A DNA stretch of 32,000 nt from contig NC_003272.1 of NCBI RefSeq assembly GCF_000009705.1, forward strand, positions 3,540,001 through 3,572,000. Reading direction: 5' to 3'. Position 1 is the first letter of the stretch, and each line of letters starts with the position of its first letter. Shown here one piece after another: positions 525 through 27,090 of the stretch. The position numbers were made by a program, and so were the translations under genes. The notes beneath the pieces are model-generated. The model saw nothing but the letters and a program-made list of their open reading frames with translations, made no database searches and was not told where the DNA came from. Source of the stretch: Nostoc sp. PCC 7120 = FACHB-418. Its GTDB lineage: Bacteria > Cyanobacteriota > Cyanobacteriia > Cyanobacteriales > Nostocaceae.

Positions 525-1427
525 CTATTTCGATCCCGTTTCAAAACTGATTTGCTCAGACTCATAGTTTGGTGGTTCGACGTGAATGATAATCCTGACT
601 GGACTGAAGCGTTCTTCTAGTCGTCTTTCGACTTCTTCGGTGATGCGATGAGCCGTTTCCACATCTGGCGCATCAACTATTAAGTGCATTTCCATGAAGA
701 TTTGACGACCAAGGACACCCCGTGAGGCGATATCGTGACAATTAATTACCCCAGGTACAGCAACGGCGATCGCGTGTATGGCTTCTGGTGCGATCGCCAT
801 TTGATCCACCAACCAAGGTAAATTCTCTTTTAACACTGACCAACCACTCCAAAATACCAACAACGCCACCGGAAAAGCTAACACTATATCTAGCCATTGA
901 TACCCAAGCCAAACCCCAATCAAACCAAATATTACTGAGATTGTTACCCACACATCACTCATAGTATGAGTCGCATCGGCGATTAAGATTTGACTACCTA
1001 CCCGCTTACCTTCATTACGTTCATAGAACGCCACAAAAATATTTACGCCCAAAACAATCAGCAACAACCACAACTCAGGCGGTGAAATTCTGACAGGTGC
1101 GCCACCCTTGAGAATACGCTCAATCGCACCTTGGAGAATTTCAAAGCAGGCTATTCCTAAAAAGGCGGCGATTCCCAAAGCACCCACAGCTTCAAATTTG
1201 TGGTGTCCGTAAGGATGTTCGCGATCGGGATATGGAGAAGAAAAGCTACTGGCGAATAATCCGAGAATATTGTTAGCACTATCTGTCACACTATGCAACG
1301 CATCGGCTAACAAGCTGAGAGAACCAGTTAAATACCCTACAAATGCTTTTAACCCCATAACAAACAAGTTGAGCAGTAGGGTAATCAATAAAACTTTGCG
1401 TACCACCGCACGGTTATCGTAAGCCAT
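525..1427 (-). CDS. Cation diffusion facilitator (CDF) family divalent-metal efflux transporter, CzcD/ZitB-like
   Basis: 300 aa with six hydrophobic helices and a C-terminal cytoplasmic domain. H-x3-D pairs sit in TM2 (LHSVTDSANN) and TM5 (THTMSDVWV), the classic CDF metal site. ATG start at 1427. Confidence 0.9.
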   Translation of the reverse strand: MAYDNRAVVRKVLLITLLLNLFVMGLKAFVGYLTGSLSLLADALHSVTDSANNILGLFASSFSSPYPDREHPYGHHKFEAVGALGIAAFLGIACFEILQGAIERILKGGAPVRISPPELWLLLIVLGVNIFVAFYERNEGKRVGSQILIADATHTMSDVWVTISVIFGLIGVWLGYQWLDIVLAFPVALLVFWSGWSVLKENLPWLVDQMAIAPEAIHAIAVAVPGVINCHDIASRGVLGRQIFMEMHLIVDAPDVETAHRITEEVERRLEERFSPVRIIIHVEPPNYESEQISFETGSK

Positions 1428-8199: not shown

Positions 8200-10407
8200 C
8201 TACCTTGGCGGGTCTTTGTGCATGAGGGGACGCAGACCATTTAACCCGGCTGCAATGGCTGAACCATTATGAACTACAGTTGCCGCTAGGGGATGTATTC
8301 CTACTGTGGTCGCTAGTCCTAAAGCGGCTAGGTTGGGAACTACGGCTAAACTGATATTTTGTTTAATGACTGCTTGGGTTTGACGGGCGATCGCTATTGC
8401 TTCGAGAAAACTAGTTAAGTTATCATCCATCAGGACAACATCGGCTGTTTCCCTAGCTACTTCGGAACCACTACCAAAGGAAATGGCGACATCGGCATAA
8501 GCTAAGGCGATGGAATCATTTAAACCATCGCCGGTAAAGGCGACAGTTTTACCTGAATCATGGAATTTCTGGATTATTTCGGCTTTTTGTGCGGGGAATG
8601 CTTCTGCATGGACTTGGAATAGGGGAAGATGGAGTTCCGCCGCAACAGCCATAGCCCTTTGCTGATTATCCCCTGTCAGTAGATGTATTTCCATGCCGTA
8701 TTCGGTTTGTAGTTTCTCAATTACGGCTGGGCTTTCTGGGCGCAGGGGGTCTGTGTAATAGATTACGCCTTGAAATTCCTGATTTACTGCCACATACAGT
8801 AAAGAATCATGGGCGGAGATGCGACAATTGAGGTGCTTGGGACAATCTGCATGGTTGCAACTATGTGGTTCATAAAGACAATCGAGGGGAATGCCACACT
8901 GACGCAAAAAGCGATCGCTCCCTACTATAACTTGTTCACCGTCAATTTCGGCTCGTACACCTAAGCCAATTTCATACTCAAATTCTTGCCTGGGCAGAAT
9001 TTCTATACCTTGTTTCTCGGCATAACGTACCACGGCTTCGGCTACTGGGTGGGTTAGGCGTTGTTCGGCGGCGGTGGCTAGGGCTATAAGTCTGTGGGTG
9101 GTGATTCTGTCGGCGATGATTTCCACCTCCACAACTTCGATATCACCTTTGGTTAATGTGCCTGTTTTATCGAAAACTAATGTATCTACCTGTGCCAATT
9201 TTTCTAAGGCGCGACCACTACGGATGAGAACACCGTGTCTTGTGGCGTGGTGTAAGGCGGCGAGGAAAGTTGTAGGTAGGGAAACGCGGATACCTGTGAC
9301 AAAATCAAGGGTGAGGATAGATGCAGCCCTGGCAGGGTTGCGGGTGGCTGCAAATACCAGTCCGGCAAAAATTAGAGATGGTAATATGGCTTGGTCGGCA
9401 ATGTCCGCCGCGTAGTTACCCATGCGTGTATCGTGAACGGGTGCTTGTTGGACTAACTCGATACTTGCACCAGCACGGGTAGCTGTTCCTACTCGTTCGG
9501 CTTGGATGTAAATTTCTCCTTCCCTGAGTAAGGTGGACGCATAAACCGCTTCTCCCACCTGACGCAAAACTGGCATGGATTCACCAGTGAGTTTTTGTTG
9601 GTCAATTAAAGCTTTACCCCTTAATATTTGCCCATCTACGGGGATTTGTTCGCCGGGATAGACTATGACTGTATCTTGTGGTTGTACTTGTGTAGCGAGG
9701 AGGCGTTTTTTCTGCCCATCTGGTTGTGCAACCCAAGCGTAATGCCCCAAAGAAGCCAGTAAATCGGCAGCGTGATTTTCCGTAACTCTGGCGGTGCGAT
9801 CGCGTATTATATCGCCAATTTCATGCAGTGTCATCACCAAAGCTGGTGTTAACAGGTTTCCTTGGGCAGAAGTTAAGGCGATCGCGATAAAATCTAGACA
9901 ATCTATATTTAATTTTCGTTTTTGGGTAATGCTAGTATAAGCACGTTTCGCTACCGGTAAAGCTGCAAGTCCTACCGTCGCTGCAATTATTGCCCTGGGA
10001 ATGGGGAACCCCAAACCCAATACAGCTAACACGGTTGCCAAAACTGGCAATTTTACACCAGCATTATCTGATTTTGTTACTTGTTGACGGTTGACTGTTG
10101 ACGGTTGCCTAAATTTAGCCTGATGAAGTAAACCTACCAGATAAGCTTCTATGAGCCTATTGCTAGCAGATTGCTCATATCTAATAGCAACAGAAGCTGC
10201 CCAGGGATTAACCCGTACTTCCAATATGTGACTGTCAGATTCTAGTAATTCTTGCAGGCGTTGAGCATAATAGAGGTCATGGGCTACCAGGGGAACGCGA
10301 AATCTGATTCTGCCTGGAATTGTATGCACTACACTGTAGGCAACTCCAGCGATGATACTTGATTTCTGAGCCACTTGCTTACTAGTTTCCGGCTTGGTGG
10401 CAGTCAT
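8200..10407 (-). CDS. P1B-like (heavy-metal type) P-type ATPase with non-canonical metal-site motifs
   Basis: 735 aa. Motifs TGES (LTGESMPV), DKTGTLT, LTGDN and GDGLNDS are all present, with an 8-TM P1B-like layout. The N-terminal HMA-like fold lacks CxxC (TIPGRIRFRVP). The TM position of CPC/SPC/CPH reads LDFVTG...SLPTT by manual alignment. A Cys/His-rich insert HSCNHADCPKHLNC sits in the nucleotide-binding domain. Confidence 0.85.
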   Translation of the reverse strand: MTATKPETSKQVAQKSSIIAGVAYSVVHTIPGRIRFRVPLVAHDLYYAQRLQELLESDSHILEVRVNPWAASVAIRYEQSASNRLIEAYLVGLLHQAKFRQPSTVNRQQVTKSDNAGVKLPVLATVLAVLGLGFPIPRAIIAATVGLAALPVAKRAYTSITQKRKLNIDCLDFIAIALTSAQGNLLTPALVMTLHEIGDIIRDRTARVTENHAADLLASLGHYAWVAQPDGQKKRLLATQVQPQDTVIVYPGEQIPVDGQILRGKALIDQQKLTGESMPVLRQVGEAVYASTLLREGEIYIQAERVGTATRAGASIELVQQAPVHDTRMGNYAADIADQAILPSLIFAGLVFAATRNPARAASILTLDFVTGIRVSLPTTFLAALHHATRHGVLIRSGRALEKLAQVDTLVFDKTGTLTKGDIEVVEVEIIADRITTHRLIALATAAEQRLTHPVAEAVVRYAEKQGIEILPRQEFEYEIGLGVRAEIDGEQVIVGSDRFLRQCGIPLDCLYEPHSCNHADCPKHLNCRISAHDSLLYVAVNQEFQGVIYYTDPLRPESPAVIEKLQTEYGMEIHLLTGDNQQRAMAVAAELHLPLFQVHAEAFPAQKAEIIQKFHDSGKTVAFTGDGLNDSIALAYADVAISFGSGSEVARETADVVLMDDNLTSFLEAIAIARQTQAVIKQNISLAVVPNLAALGLATTVGIHPLAATVVHNGSAIAAGLNGLRPLMHKDPPR
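10083..10110. repeat. Heptamer tandem repeat (GTTGACG/GTTGACT) inside the ATPase coding sequence
   Basis: gttgacg gttgact gttgacg gttgcct encodes the linker ...RQPSTVNRQQV... A related TTGACGGTTGACAG occurs in the intergenic region at about 25571-25584. Confidence 0.7.
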
Positions 10408-10613
10408 GATTTCCCCCTCATGGTGGTGTAGCGACTTAATGAGTGGGATTCTATCGTTGCAATGAATTCAATATCCCACAAAACAGTTATGCCATAACAA
10501 GACTAATCAAGTGCTTGTGAGGACTTTAACTGTGAATATAAGTATATTGAATACCCTTGCTCAATTATTTCTAGCCAATGAAATTATTTTTAAAGATTAA
10601 GTTTAAATAAATT

Positions 10614-10747
10614 AGGACTTACGCACCCAGGTTGTCTGTTAAGACCGGGTGTAAGGGTTTAAGAGTAAGGGATGTAAGAGTGTCAAACATTTATACCCCC
10701 ATACCCTTGTTCAAACCCTTGATCTTTCGGTTTCATGCGTAAGTCTT
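10614..10747 (+). mobile_element. MITE-like element, full copy B
   Basis: TIR AGGACTTACGCA (10614-10625) / TGCGTAAGTCTT (10736-10747). Homologous to copy A. Ends 9 nt from the iota-CA stop codon. Confidence 0.8.
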
Positions 10748-10756
10748 ATGAATATC

Positions 10757-11374
10757 TTATTGTTCATAAGGTAGTGAGGAGTGATGCGTAATAATACGCA
10801 GCTTACCATGATCATCCTTCAAGAACTGCCAAGTCTTGTCTACCGTGGTGGCCTTACCTTGTTTGTCGGTGATGATTACGTTACCCATCGTAGTAGCTGT
10901 GTTACCAGTGATGAAAATCGCTGCATTCTTAATCTCTACTTTGCGCCAGCTACTCAAAGCAAAACCCTTGTCCTCAGGAAAAGCTTTATCGTCCCCCACA
11001 AAGTATGCCAAAGCCCCTGCACGGGTGGTGCGGAAGGTACGGGGAGATATGGCGAGTGTAGGCTTGAAAAGAACGGGGCCGAATTGATAACCGTAGGCAT
11101 CGTCAATCACCTTTTCAGCTAAAGCTTTAGCTGATGCTTTACCTTTCGCATCATAGGTTGTGGAAATAGCCACCAAAGCTTCCCCCCAAGCCTTTTGAGC
11201 AGCCAACACTTCGCTTTCAGTAATCGCCCTATTGACGATTGGCGTTTTCAGACTGGAAGTAGCCGTGATTTTGTCACCGGAGTCGGCAACGGATGTCTGG
11301 GCGACAATTGCAATACCTGATATAAGTGCGGTGGCTGCAAATAATACTAGAATCCTCGGTTTGAAGAGATTCAT
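10757..11374 (-). CDS. Iota-class carbonic anhydrase (COG4337; NTF2/CaMKII-AD-like fold), exported
   Basis: 205 aa. Sec-type signal peptide MNLFKPRILVLFAATALISGIAIVAQTSVA|DS. SnoaL/CaMKII-AD-like start of the mature domain (ITESEVLAAQKAWGEAL). C-terminal T-H-H-S-S at residues 196-200 is the HHSS signature of iota-CAs. The length and the His197/Ser199 positions match my memory of Anabaena All2909. Confidence 0.75.
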   Translation of the reverse strand: MNLFKPRILVLFAATALISGIAIVAQTSVADSGDKITATSSLKTPIVNRAITESEVLAAQKAWGEALVAISTTYDAKGKASAKALAEKVIDDAYGYQFGPVLFKPTLAISPRTFRTTRAGALAYFVGDDKAFPEDKGFALSSWRKVEIKNAAIFITGNTATTMGNVIITDKQGKATTVDKTWQFLKDDHGKLRIITHHSSLPYEQ

Positions 11375-11474
11375 TCAGTAAATGCTTTAGTTTGTATCTA
11401 TTTATATTCTCACAAGTTGAGGTTTTAAGTAGCCATCATAAAATGCCTACACAAGAAAACATGAAAAGGCCTTT

Positions 11475-11518
11475 CCCTTACCCCCAGTCTCAACAGACAA
11501 ACTGGGTGCGTAAGTCAT
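11475..11518 (-). mobile_element. Solo terminal fragment (copy D) of the MITE family, inverted orientation
   Basis: The reverse complement ATGACTTACGCACCCAGTTTGTCTGTTGAGACTGGGGGTAAGGG matches the first 44 nt of copy B with about 5 mismatches. It ends 1 nt from the beta-CA stop codon. Confidence 0.7.
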
Positions 11519-11519
11519 A

Positions 11520-12251
11520 TTAAGAAATTACTGAGACTGTTCCGGTATCAATATCGTAAGCAGCACCAATGATTTGGACAGTACCTTTATTAACTAACTG
11601 TGCCAAAATGGTTGATTTTTGTTGCAGCTTTTCAGCTTGGTACTGGATGTTAGCAATAACAGCTGCTTTATTAACATCCTTGGACTTTGACGGTAATTTT
11701 GACAAGGCTGGTCTAATACTCTCCGCCAAATAGCCGATTCTGCCAGGAAGGGGTTCATCTTTCACACTGGCTGCCACAGCACCGCATTTTGTATGCCCTA
11801 AAACGACAATCAACCGTGTATCGAGTACAGATGTAGCATATTCCAAACTAGCGATCGCCATATCACTGGCAATATTACCAGCTACTCGCACCACGAATAA
11901 ATCCCCCAGCCCTTGGTCAAAAACAATTTCCGCCGGGACTCTCGAATCTGCACAACCCAAAATAGCCGCAAAAGGATACTGTGCTTTGGCAATTGATTGC
12001 AGTTTTTGCCGTGATTGGTTAGGATACTTTGGTTTTCTTTTGACAAATCTTTGATTACCATCCAGTAAAAGCTTTAAAGCTTTTTGTGGATTTACTGGAT
12101 TAAGGTTAATTGATTTGACATCAGCAATAGCAGGTTCTTCTTTACCTACAGTCAAACTACCAGCACAAGCATTAGCAGCAACAACCAAGCTTCCCGCGCC
12201 GGCTAACCCTAAGAAATTACGACGGCCAATAAATCCATTGATTCGACTCAT
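11520..12251 (-). CDS. Beta-class carbonic anhydrase with a twin-arginine (Tat) signal peptide
   Basis: 243 aa from ATG 12251 (the track start at 12266 is TTG). Tat motif GRRNFLGLAGAG. Beta-CA zinc-ligand motifs CADSRVP and LGHTKCGAV. Confidence 0.9.
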   Translation of the reverse strand: MSRINGFIGRRNFLGLAGAGSLVVAANACAGSLTVGKEEPAIADVKSINLNPVNPQKALKLLLDGNQRFVKRKPKYPNQSRQKLQSIAKAQYPFAAILGCADSRVPAEIVFDQGLGDLFVVRVAGNIASDMAIASLEYATSVLDTRLIVVLGHTKCGAVAASVKDEPLPGRIGYLAESIRPALSKLPSKSKDVNKAAVIANIQYQAEKLQQKSTILAQLVNKGTVQIIGAAYDIDTGTVSVIS

Positions 12252-12495
12252 TTCTTTACCTAACAACAGTTTGACTGTTATCAGAAAGATACCAAACTTA
12301 ACAAAGTTTCAAGAGTACTTTTGCACACGCTTTAAGAGTTATTTAATTATTAGTTAGTAGTCAAACCCTAAAACACTGGCTTTAGGGTATAGGGGTGTAG
12401 GGGTGGATGCAACCATTATTCCGTTGCTGGTTTTATAGTCATTACTCATTAACCTTATGAAAAACCTACACTTGCCAGATTGTATACTCCCTAGT

Positions 12496-13653
12496 TCAAC
12501 TGTCCTTGACACCAAACCACTTATCATACAGTGATTGATAAGTGCCATTTTCTTTGAGTTTCAGTAAGGCATTATTAATAGGTTTACGGTAGGGGCTATT
12601 ATTAGGCAAAACAATACCGTAGTTTTCTTCGCGGAAGACACTGCCCACAACCTCTACTTTTCCCTGACCTTGATTAGCAGCATAGAACAGAAGTACAGGA
12701 GAGTCAAAAACAACAGCTTCAGCTTTTTTTGTTTCTAAAGCATCGTAAGCTTGCTCAATTTTGGGAACCTCTAAGACAGAAATTTTCTGTTGTTTTAAGT
12801 ATGTTGCAGCTGTGCTACCAGTTGTTGTTGCCACCACCCTGCCTGGTAGATCACTTACACTGTTGATATCTGCTTGTAACTGTTGCACAGTTAGCGAAGT
12901 GGTAGCAGCTGCTGTAAAGTAAGTGACAAATAGTACACCGATAAACATCCAAATAATAGCTAATATCCGACCGATGACTCCTTTGGGCATTTCATCAGCT
13001 TGAGTTGCTAAGGTAGCAGCAGCCCACCAACAGGCTTTGAAAATCCCAGGAAAGTAAGATTGGGAAATCATGCCTTCTTTTTGATGACGCTCAGATAACC
13101 AAATGACGTGTGCGGCTATGACAATGAGCAACAAAGCCAAGCCAAGCACTTGTAAGATCGTTGTCGATAAGAATAGTGACAAAATATTAGGTGTGCCACT
13201 ATTACTGAGTTTTGGATTGCGTACTAAAATCTGTAATCCCCCACTAAACATGGGTAAGGAAAAGTCAAATTGTTGCTGACGTTCAGCTGTAATTGAGATG
13301 GCTGCAATCCCTGCATTGGCTTTACCATTCTGCACAGATGAGAGCAAATCAGGAACGCTTGGATATTCCACGAATTTAGACTCTGCACCTATCTGGCTGG
13401 CAATACTGCGCCAAAGATCAATACTGAATCCTGATAGTTCACCATTGTCAGTAAAGACAAAGGGGGGAATAGCTCTAGTAGCTACGACAAAGGATTTTTG
13501 AGTTTCAGGTTCTTGGGACTGCACTGGATGAACAACTAGGAACAACACCAAAATTCCGCATACCATTCCTAGCCAGATAGGGAGTTTCAGGAAACGCCTT
13601 ATGTTCCTTGCCGCAACAAATTGAGAAAATCTTTGGGCGATCGCATTTATCAT
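12496..13653 (-). CDS. Prokaryotic ionotropic glutamate receptor homolog (GluR0-type: split periplasmic amino-acid-binding domain plus pore module)
   Basis: 385 aa. Order is signal/anchor helix, SBP_bac_3-like lobe S1 (..ISITAERQQQFDFS..), M1 helix, re-entrant loop (CWWAAATLATQADEMP), M3-like helix (GRILAIIWMFIGVLFVTYFTAAATTSLT) and lobe S2 (..AVVFDSPVLLFY..). There is no GYG anywhere in the protein. Confidence 0.8.
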   Translation of the reverse strand: MINAIAQRFSQFVAARNIRRFLKLPIWLGMVCGILVLFLVVHPVQSQEPETQKSFVVATRAIPPFVFTDNGELSGFSIDLWRSIASQIGAESKFVEYPSVPDLLSSVQNGKANAGIAAISITAERQQQFDFSLPMFSGGLQILVRNPKLSNSGTPNILSLFLSTTILQVLGLALLLIVIAAHVIWLSERHQKEGMISQSYFPGIFKACWWAAATLATQADEMPKGVIGRILAIIWMFIGVLFVTYFTAAATTSLTVQQLQADINSVSDLPGRVVATTTGSTAATYLKQQKISVLEVPKIEQAYDALETKKAEAVVFDSPVLLFYAANQGQGKVEVVGSVFREENYGIVLPNNSPYRKPINNALLKLKENGTYQSLYDKWFGVKDS

Positions 13654-20510: not shown

Positions 20511-20616
20511 CTTGGTTCGGGATTTTGATTGGGACTTTCAGATTGCTCTAAAAAATTTCTTTCTTTATCTTTGCATTTTTTAGAGTTTCAGCGTACAATA
20601 GTAAATCGTGACATCT

Positions 20617-20703
20617 GGAGAGATGGCCGAGTGGTTTAAGGCGCAGACCTGGAAAGTCTGTAATGCGGAAACGTATTCTAGGGTTCAAATCCCTATCTCT
20701 CCG
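20617..20703 (+). tRNA. tRNA-Ser, anticodon GGA
   Basis: Manual cloverleaf: acceptor GGAGAGA/TCTCTCC plus discriminator G; anticodon stem CAGAC/GTCTG with loop CTGGAAA; long class-II variable arm; T arm TAGGG-TTCAAAT-CCCTA. CCA is not encoded. Confidence 0.9.
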
Positions 20704-20730
20704 TTATTCAGCCTAGTTTAAATATATAGT

Positions 20731-22969: not shown

Positions 22970-23263
22970 TCAAGATACTAAGATACGAGGACAAATAGTT
23001 TCTTGTATTTCTTTCCCTGATGTTTGTTCAGCTAACCTTAGCTCATAATTCTTTTGAAGATTTAACCAGAATTCTCCACCAGTTCCAAAATATTGTCCTA
23101 ATCGCAAAGCTGTATCGGCTGTTATCCCTCGTCTGCCATTAATGATTTCAGTAATTCTGTTTTTGGGAACATGGAGAACACGCGCTAAATCACTCGCAGT
23201 CATAGCGAGTTCAGTAATTTCGTCAGCAAGAATTTCTCCGGGGTGGATTGGTGGGCGTGCCAT
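22970..23263 (-). CDS. higA: HigA-family antitoxin (XRE-type HTH)
   Basis: 97 aa. PIHPGEILADE...LARVLHVPKNRITEIINGRRGITADTALRL is the canonical HigA/VapI pattern. AAGGAGAG SD. Starts 11 nt after the toxin stop. Confidence 0.9.
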   Translation of the reverse strand: MARPPIHPGEILADEITELAMTASDLARVLHVPKNRITEIINGRRGITADTALRLGQYFGTGGEFWLNLQKNYELRLAEQTSGKEIQETICPRILVS

Positions 23264-23274
23264 TTATCTCTCCT

Positions 23275-23574
23275 TCAGTGATAATCTGTAATCTCTATGT
23301 TGAAGGGCTTAAGAAAATCATCAGGCCAGTTAAAACAAATTCTCCACTGCTCATTAATTCGGATACTGTACTGACCTTTTCTATCGCCTCCTAATGACTC
23401 AAAACGATTACTTGGTAGTTGCATTAGCACTTCCTTATTAGGGGCTGCATCTATAATATCTAATCGTTTTTGTGCTTGTCTCTCAAAAGATTGAAACTCT
23501 TTAACCCTTTCTCCTAAAGCAAATTTCTCCGTCCTTTTATCTTTATATTTAGGGTATTCATCTGATGGAGACAT
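23275..23574 (-). CDS. higB: HigB-family (RelE/ParE superfamily) toxin, plasmid-maintenance-killer type
   Basis: 99 aa. ...RLDIIDAAPNKEVLMQLPSNRFESLGGDRKGQYSIRINEQWRICFNW... The toxin-first gene order is typical of higBA. Confidence 0.85.
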   Translation of the reverse strand: MSPSDEYPKYKDKRTEKFALGERVKEFQSFERQAQKRLDIIDAAPNKEVLMQLPSNRFESLGGDRKGQYSIRINEQWRICFNWPDDFLKPFNIEITDYH

Positions 23575-26295: not shown

Positions 26296-27090
26296 TTAAA
26301 TGGCTTCGATAACTAGGCGATCGTTGAGAGGTTGCACTGGACGTGCGTTTTGGGGAAACATTTGACTAAACTTAGCTATCTGTGCAGGAGAGGCTTCGAT
26401 AGGTGTCGCCATTACGCACCAGAGAACATTTTCTGAACAGGGTGGGGTTGTCAGAGAGCCAGAATAAGTAAAAAATCTGTGTTGTGCTGGGAGAAATTGG
26501 GAAGCGTCTATATTTATATCCTCTATTCTTTTGTCTGTTCCTTGGTTTTGAGGTGTGGCATCCCAGATAATTTGCAGCGTCGGGTTAAATGCTCCTGCTT
26601 GCAAGAAAATACCCATAACGGCTAAGTCGCCAGATTTACTCCGGTGAACTAAATGGAGTTCCATATCATATAATTTCCCATCAACCCGATGTTCGCTGAA
26701 GTGATGAAAGTGAAACTGAAGCAGCTCAAATTTTTGGTGAGCATACTTGAGATAACTGCCTGGTTGATAGTTGACTTGGACTGTTTTACCGTTGTTGATT
26801 AGGTGTAATGCCGTTGGCTGATAATTGGTAACTAACAAATCTTGACTGCTGCTGTGGACATCTTTCACATCTGCAATCTGCAAATCAATCGGCGTTTGTT
26901 TTCTGCCTATTTGGCAAAGGGCAAAGTCAGGGGAAAGCTCACCCCAATGCTCTGGGCCTACTTTGCCGATATATCCCCAGTTTACCGTTTTTGCCCTAGC
27001 TGGAGATGTGACACAACTAGAAAATGAGGTTCCCAAGACACTCATACCCAATAATTTCAGTAGTTGCCTTCGATATAAAGTACTACTCAT
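26296..27090 (-). CDS. ecaA: Alpha-class carbonic anhydrase, exported
   Basis: 264 aa. RR-containing signal (YRRQLLKLLGMSVLG...ARA|K). Alpha-CA hallmarks NWGY, QFHFHHFSEH (two Zn His), ELHLVH (third His) and GSLTTPPCSE. Confidence 0.9.
   Translation of the reverse strand: MSSTLYRRQLLKLLGMSVLGTSFSSCVTSPARAKTVNWGYIGKVGPEHWGELSPDFALCQIGRKQTPIDLQIADVKDVHSSSQDLLVTNYQPTALHLINNGKTVQVNYQPGSYLKYAHQKFELLQFHFHHFSEHRVDGKLYDMELHLVHRSKSGDLAVMGIFLQAGAFNPTLQIIWDATPQNQGTDKRIEDINIDASQFLPAQHRFFTYSGSLTTPPCSENVLWCVMATPIEASPAQIAKFSQMFPQNARPVQPLNDRLVIEAI

Follow-up and report, generated by a model that had tools for sequence, protein, structure and literature searches.

Three questions are raised by the all2909 locus of Nostoc sp. 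PCC 7120: whether the open reading frame encodes a carbonic anhydrase (CA) of the iota class, whether such an enzyme works without a metal ion, and how its gene came to stand between a beta-class CA and a heavy-metal ATPase. They were addressed in the 32,000-nt stretch of DNA that surrounds the gene (the window), for which an initial annotation had proposed an exported, probably metal-independent iota-CA. With a probability of about 0.95, the open reading frame is all2909, a single-domain COG4337 (MICAH) iota-CA that hydrates CO2 without a metal, with an export route and a physiological role that are predicted. The gene, the structure of its product, the catalytic residues and the metal independence are already known, having been published in 2021; the putative exchange of CA genes at the locus, the inverted repeats that flank the gene and a conserved block upstream of it are the only material absent from the searchable literature, and are of modest interest.

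Identity of the all2909 product

The open reading frame lies on the minus strand; it begins with an ATG, runs for 205 codons from 11374 down to 10760 and closes with a stop codon at 10757-10759. The initial annotation had the coordinates exactly right and left out the strand.

10757-11374, minus strand: all2909, iota-class (COG4337) metal-independent carbonic anhydrase (open reading frame list, PDB, NCBIfam and exact sequence match)

A sequence search of the PDB aligned residues 31-205 to chain residues 4-178 of entries 7C5V and 7C5W ("iota-carbonic anhydrase", Nostoc sp. PCC 7120) with 100% identity (E = 1.5e-113), and an exact-sequence look-up returned the full 205-aa product as BAB74608.1, which is UniProt MICAH_NOSS1 (Nostocaceae). 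There is no difference at the protein level between the window's product and these entries, and the metal-free Anabaena CA to which the initial annotation had compared it is this same protein. Searches against iota-CA sequences and All2909, which had been proposed there as a check, thus gave significant similarity throughout and full identity in the case of All2909. In NCBIfam, the equivalog NF047901 ("metal-independent carbonic anhydrase"), with a cutoff of 350 bits, matches the product at 407.4 bits over residues 1-205 of 205. Residues 50-204 match each of the three domains of Bn86287 from Bigelowiella natans (7C5X/7C5Y) with E values of 2e-20 to 5e-26; these alignments start at residue 50-51 and define a single domain in all2909. 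The placement in the iota class, COG4337, is confirmed by these matches. With a solved-structure match at E = 1.5e-113 and relatives at 103 places in other genomes, the open reading frame is no chance reading frame.

A search of an older local copy of Pfam-A returned no family for all2909 at E ≤ 0.1, and in particular no CaMKII-association-domain-type match of the kind that characterizes the COG4875-type family. As Pfam PF27546 MICAH is assigned to the identical product in precomputed annotation, the absence of a Pfam-A family reflects the age of the library and is not counter-evidence to family membership. The expectation that standard annotation would label the gene as hypothetical holds in part: "hypothetical protein" is still the name in some sources, but "metal-independent carbonic anhydrase" is given in others and the PF27546 family exists. 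In all of the contigs examined that carry this exact protein (24/24), the neighboring genes are the same ones as in the window.

Bn86287, the second characterized metal-free member of COG4337, resembles all2909 in its HHSS motif, its Thr/Tyr/His/Ser set and its metal independence. It differs in being a eukaryotic, plastid-targeted protein of three tandem domains that forms a dimer, whereas all2909 is a single-domain protein, tetrameric in solution, with a signal peptide of bacterial type; Lys180 of all2909 is replaced by Tyr in Bn86287.

Structure, activity and metal independence

Recombinant all2909 lacking its leader hydrates CO2 with a specific activity of 16.7 ± 0.5 WAU/mg and is inhibited by 1 mM iodide (Hirakawa et al. 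2021, BMC Biol 19:105, PMC8132391). The protein is a tetramer in solution and folds as a cone-shaped barrel of three helices and a four-stranded sheet; crystals with bicarbonate (2.65 Å) and iodide (2.30 Å) show the ligand in a bent internal cavity and contain no metal (PMC8132391). The 7C5V/7C5W structures, identical in sequence to residues 31-205 of the window's product, have the NTF2-like cone-shaped alpha+beta barrel with an inner cavity and no metal. The NTF2/CaMKII-association-domain-like body described in the initial annotation agrees with the literature on the solved structure, and both this fold and the class assignment are confirmed by a review. The T106A, Y124A, H197A and S199A variants are inactive and K180A is active (PMC8132391). 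A 2026 preprint still treats all2909 as the reference zinc-less iota-CA.

10775-10786, minus strand: HHSS motif codons H197-H198-S199-S200 (from the translation; H197 and S199 essential by mutagenesis)
11057-11059, minus strand: T106 codon; hydroxyl and main-chain nitrogen proposed to activate the catalytic water; T106A inactive
11003-11005, minus strand: Y124 codon; proposed water deprotonation and proton shuttle; Y124A inactive

The translation of the C-terminus, ...GKLRIITHHSSLPYEQ, places T196, H197, H198, S199 and S200 where the initial annotation had put its THHSS, in a protein of the 205 aa that it had counted, and the whole Thr/Tyr/His/Ser catalytic set (T106, Y124, H197 and S199) is present. 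As published for this exact sequence, mature all2909 forms dimers or tetramers of NTF2-like alpha+beta barrels and converts CO2 to bicarbonate in a deep cavity in the absence of a metal ion. In the proposed mechanism, a water molecule would be polarized and deprotonated by the T106 and Y124 hydroxyls, with the aid of S199 and of the main-chain nitrogen of T106, and would then attack CO2 in a hydrophobic pocket near F138 (a residue that is present in all2909). Y124 probably passes the proton outwards, and H197, at the bottom of the cavity, is essential.

Two features are the main weak points of this published functional picture: the specific activity is ~36-fold below that of bovine CA (about 600 WAU/mg), and bicarbonate dehydration is almost nil, a result that is unexpected of a true catalyst and for which the paper offers no explanation (PMC8132391). 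Taken with the lack of any esterase activity (PMC8132391), with the many unrelated functions that NTF2-like folds carry and with a searchable literature in which no in vivo data for all2909 were found, they could be read to mean that the main job of all2909 lies elsewhere, as an NTF2-like binder of small molecules or anions or as some other enzyme, with weak CO2 hydration in vitro as a side activity. We consider this very unlikely: bicarbonate and the CA inhibitor iodide both bind in the cavity, four single substitutions are each enough to kill the activity, and the algal homologue is located, as other carbon-concentrating CAs are, at the periphery of the plastid. Conservation and genomic context also bear on this reading and are considered in the following sections.

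The metal independence of all2909 as a CA, which the initial annotation had thought probable, is published for the identical sequence. Treatment with 50 mM EDTA and 6 M urea, or with 50 mM PDA, conditions under which bovine CA loses its Zn, did not lower the activity of all2909; none of eight added divalent metals raised it, and Zn lowered it (PMC8132391). Of the six metals measured by ICP-OES (Mg, Ca, Mn, Co, Zn and Cd), none was found in the protein (PMC8132391). The COG4875-type iota-CAs, namely LCIP63, BteCA-iota of Burkholderia territorii and Xanthomonas 3H51, belong to another COG and another superfamily than all2909 and are reported to depend on Mn or Zn. Only the HHSS motif and the fold are common to COG4337 and COG4875 (PMC8132391); COG4337 proteins have an extra insertion relative to COG4875, and the two types rarely occur in one genome. 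That all2909 might nevertheless be a conventional Mn- or Zn-dependent iota-CA, one that shed its metal in the assay or could do without it there, could be argued from the metal dependence reported for diatom LCIP63 and the B. territorii enzyme and from the shared HHSS motif, but is made most improbable by the chelation, metal addition and ICP-OES results and by two metal-free crystal forms. A review from the B. territorii group itself raises the possibility that no iota-CA uses a metal in catalysis.

Conservation of the active site

With each species represented by a single genome, a homologue scan confirmed 103 related loci, 80 of which were kept for comparison (loci are cited below by L numbers). 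Identity to all2909 ranges from 87% (Sphaerospermopsis) down to ~41%, and the homologues come from cyanobacteria, Proteobacteria, Bacteroidota and one archaeal metagenome-assembled genome (MAG). In the alignment of the 80 loci, T106, Y124 and F138 are each retained in 79/79 aligned residues, H197 in 78/78 and S199 in 77/78. The second histidine of the motif, H198, varies (H, Q, K or D), as does the position of K180 (K, Y, F or E), the latter in keeping with the dispensability of K180 by mutagenesis. The near-invariance of T106, Y124, H197 and S199 across phyla further argues against CO2 hydration as a side activity of a protein with another function, and for all2909 as a CA.

Between cyanobacteria and many Proteobacteria (L045-L062; Caulobacterales and Burkholderiales), identity over the mature domain is 64-71%, and the Nostocales contain two distinct lineages of iota-CA, one 82-87% identical to all2909 (Sphaerospermopsis, A. 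minutissima) and the other ~70% identical with different N-termini (Dolichospermum, Aphanizomenon). Together, these comparisons point to horizontal transfer. A 76% match, L004, comes from a MAG assigned to Rhizobium sp., possibly through a binning error.

Neighboring genes

The genes around all2909 are as follows.

11520-12266, minus strand: all2910, beta-class CA with the twin-arginine signal GRRNFLGLAG (Pfam PF00484, 5.1e-40; the 243-aa form is BAB74609.1)
12496-13653, minus strand: GluR0-like ligand-gated channel (Pfam SBP_bac_3, Lig_chan, Lig_chan-Glu_bd)
8200-10407, minus strand: heavy-metal P1B-type ATPase (HMA_2 domain at the N-terminus), immediately downstream of all2909
26296-27090, minus strand: alpha-CA with a YRRQLLK signal
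525-1427, minus strand: CDF zinc-efflux transporter (NCBIfam equivalog Cdf31, 560 bits)
22970-23263 and 23275-23574, minus strand: HigB-like toxin and HTH antitoxin pair, an ordinary feature
20616-20704, plus strand: tRNA-Ser(GGA), an ordinary feature

Read along the minus strand, the order is GluR0-like channel, beta-CA all2910, iota-CA all2909 and P1B-type ATPase. The channel at 12496-13653 is prokaryotic glutamate-receptor-like, with a periplasmic-binding-protein fold split by a ligand-gated channel domain. Three unrelated CA classes (iota, beta and alpha) are encoded within 16 kb, all on the minus strand and each with an export signal.

A conserved module or operon of beta-CA and iota-CA was considered and rejected, as 0/80 of the other iota-CA loci have a beta-CA within about 4 kb. 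A relative of the ATPase occurs near an iota-CA gene at only one of the 80 (L015), and is distant (33% identical). This unconserved context, with the window's beta-CA adjacent at none of the 80 other loci, is a point on the side of the reading in which CO2 hydration by all2909 is incidental; the arrangement in sister strains described below is a point on the side of a CA.

Predicted signal peptide and export

11285-11374, minus strand: predicted Sec-type signal peptide MNLFKPRILVLFAATALISGIAIVAQTSVA, codons 1-30 (read from the sequence; the construct and the crystal chain begin at D31)
10760-11284, minus strand: mature protein, residues 31-205 (Bn86287-domain alignments; structure in PMC8132391)

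The N-terminus, MNLFKPRILVLFAATALISGIAIVAQTSVA|DSGD, carries basic residues at K5 and R7, a 17-residue hydrophobic core (I8-V24) and the small residues S28 and A30 at positions -3 and -1 of the predicted cleavage site, and the same reading of the sequence found no twin-arginine motif and no lipobox cysteine in it. For these reasons the leader reads as a Sec/signal-peptidase-I signal, and the signal peptide of the initial annotation is upheld, with Sec-type features and a cleavage predicted after A30. The published expression construct and the crystallized chain both begin at D31, with an inconsistency within the paper, whose Results describe the construct as 34-206 and whose Methods describe it as 31-205; signal peptides are predicted for most bacterial COG4337 proteins (PMC8132391). 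The protein would thus be made as a 205-aa precursor, cleaved after A30 and released to the periplasm or the medium. No data on the localization, mutant phenotype or expression of all2909 were found in the searchable literature, so its export and physiological role are predictions.

The two other exported CAs of the window, which we take to be of the types named EcaA (alpha class) and EcaB (beta class), are predicted to catalyze the same reaction outside the cytoplasm, as is all2909. They differ from it in their unrelated folds, in being Zn enzymes and in their Tat-type signals (GRRNFLGLAG, with RRNFLG, in the beta-CA and YRRQLLK in the alpha-CA), whereas the iota-CA is metal-free with a Sec-type signal. 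Such a division, with Sec for the iota-CA and Tat for the beta- and alpha-CAs, would be expected if folding and cofactor insertion had to precede export for the metalloenzymes alone; the use of Sec instead of Tat is in keeping with an enzyme into which no cofactor has to be inserted in the cytoplasm.

Different carbonic anhydrases at the same position in related strains

10607-11518, no strand: PCC 7120-lineage-specific 0.9-kb segment with the iota-CA gene, with no counterpart in Trichormus variabilis (blastn against L081; gene maps of L081-L083)

Gene order in the loci L081-L083, which come from Trichormus variabilis strains and one metagenome, is that of the window, and their flanks are 93-96% identical to it at the DNA level. 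In blastn alignments, 11519 and 10606 are the window positions at which homology to L081 is lost and regained, respectively. In L081-L083, a second beta-CA with a Tat signal occupies the slot that the iota-CA has in the window, between the first beta-CA and the ATPase (5734-7022 in L081); this second enzyme has 244 aa and is 58% identical to the first beta-CA. As a bona fide beta-CA fills the same slot in the sister strains, functional equivalence of the iota-CA with a beta-CA is suggested, which again argues for all2909 as a CA and against CO2 hydration as a side activity. No base-composition (GC) anomaly was found in the segment 10607-11518. Exact look-ups of two members of the beta-CA cluster (P0009 and P0010), as outgroups for synteny, returned nothing on record.

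A conserved block upstream of the gene

11402-11433, minus strand: upstream block CTCAACTTGTGAGAATATAA, ~45 nt before the all2909 ATG (alignment, fixed-distance motif and match count in the window)

When the window is compared by blastn with its nearest iota-CA loci, the similarity runs on past the ATG for 45-60 nt upstream, reaching about 11420-11433 in the comparisons with L001-L004 and L017. Alignment of the cyanobacterial upstream regions gives the consensus ATTTGAAT-CCACAAnTTGTGAGAAGATAAG, in which the second half, after ATTTGAAT, is written out as CCACAAnTT(G/A)TGAGAAGATAAG. The block combines a -35-like and a -10-like hexamer with the palindrome CACAAnTTGTG, and looks like a candidate promoter with a palindromic operator. 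Allowing ≤2 mismatches, it is present at a fixed distance of 44-54 nt before the ATG in 17/32 cyanobacterial iota-CA loci, the 32 being those with full-length matches (loci with the block include L001-L005, L010, L011, L014, L017-L022, L024 and L026); the taxa concerned are Nostocales, Pseudanabaena, Microcystis, Chamaesiphon, Leptolyngbya and Rivularia. The motif has one match in the window, against 0.01 expected by chance. Consensus scans for promoters and terminators over 10400-12600 gave no more sites than shuffled sequence, and for this reason no transcript boundaries are claimed.

Inverted repeats at the borders of the segment

10613-10657, plus strand: downstream-side arm of a 45-nt inverted repeat (TAGGACTTACGCACCCAGGTTGTCTGTTAAGACCGGGTGTAAGGG) (repeat search)
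11475-11519, minus strand: counterpart of this arm on the upstream side, 89% complementary to it, ending directly at the stop codon of beta-CA all2910 (repeat search)

The 45-nt arms coincide with the points at which the homology to L081 breaks around the iota-CA segment. With a 13-nt inverted copy at 10736-10748, the downstream-side arm forms a 136-bp unit that resembles a miniature inverted-repeat element (MITE) and folds as DNA (z = -2.97). With the arm found once more near 20-62, the window contains three copies of the repeat. The 45-nt repeat may represent a small mobile repeat family. A search of a plasmid collection with the flanking repeat returned a single weak match, on one Nostoc plasmid. 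The 10-mer end motif GACTTACGCA was found in 6/82 loci, in some of them near iota-CA genes; a specific tie of this 10-mer to the iota-CA gene was rejected, the loci being too few and too variable. A few further cyanobacterial loci also contain the repeat end motif AGGACTTACGCA.

Discussion

The PCC 7120 segment at 10607-11518, bounded by repeats and with its own putative promoter and operator, could be the product of a non-orthologous exchange in situ, in which a Zn-dependent, Tat-exported second beta-CA was replaced by a metal-free, Sec-exported iota-CA, possibly moved by the repeats, with CACAAnTTGTG marking a regulator of iota-CA genes across cyanobacteria. We put this forward tentatively, and rate it at somewhat below even odds.

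As a metal-free CA outside the cytoplasm, all2909 would likely convert CO2 to HCO3- for the capture of inorganic carbon or for pH buffering without drawing on Zn. The iota-CA could be recognized correctly from raw sequence in the initial annotation. At this one locus, closely related strains differ in a single CA class, which provides a handle on the question of zinc sparing, and the candidate operator that is conserved upstream of iota-CA genes provides a further one.
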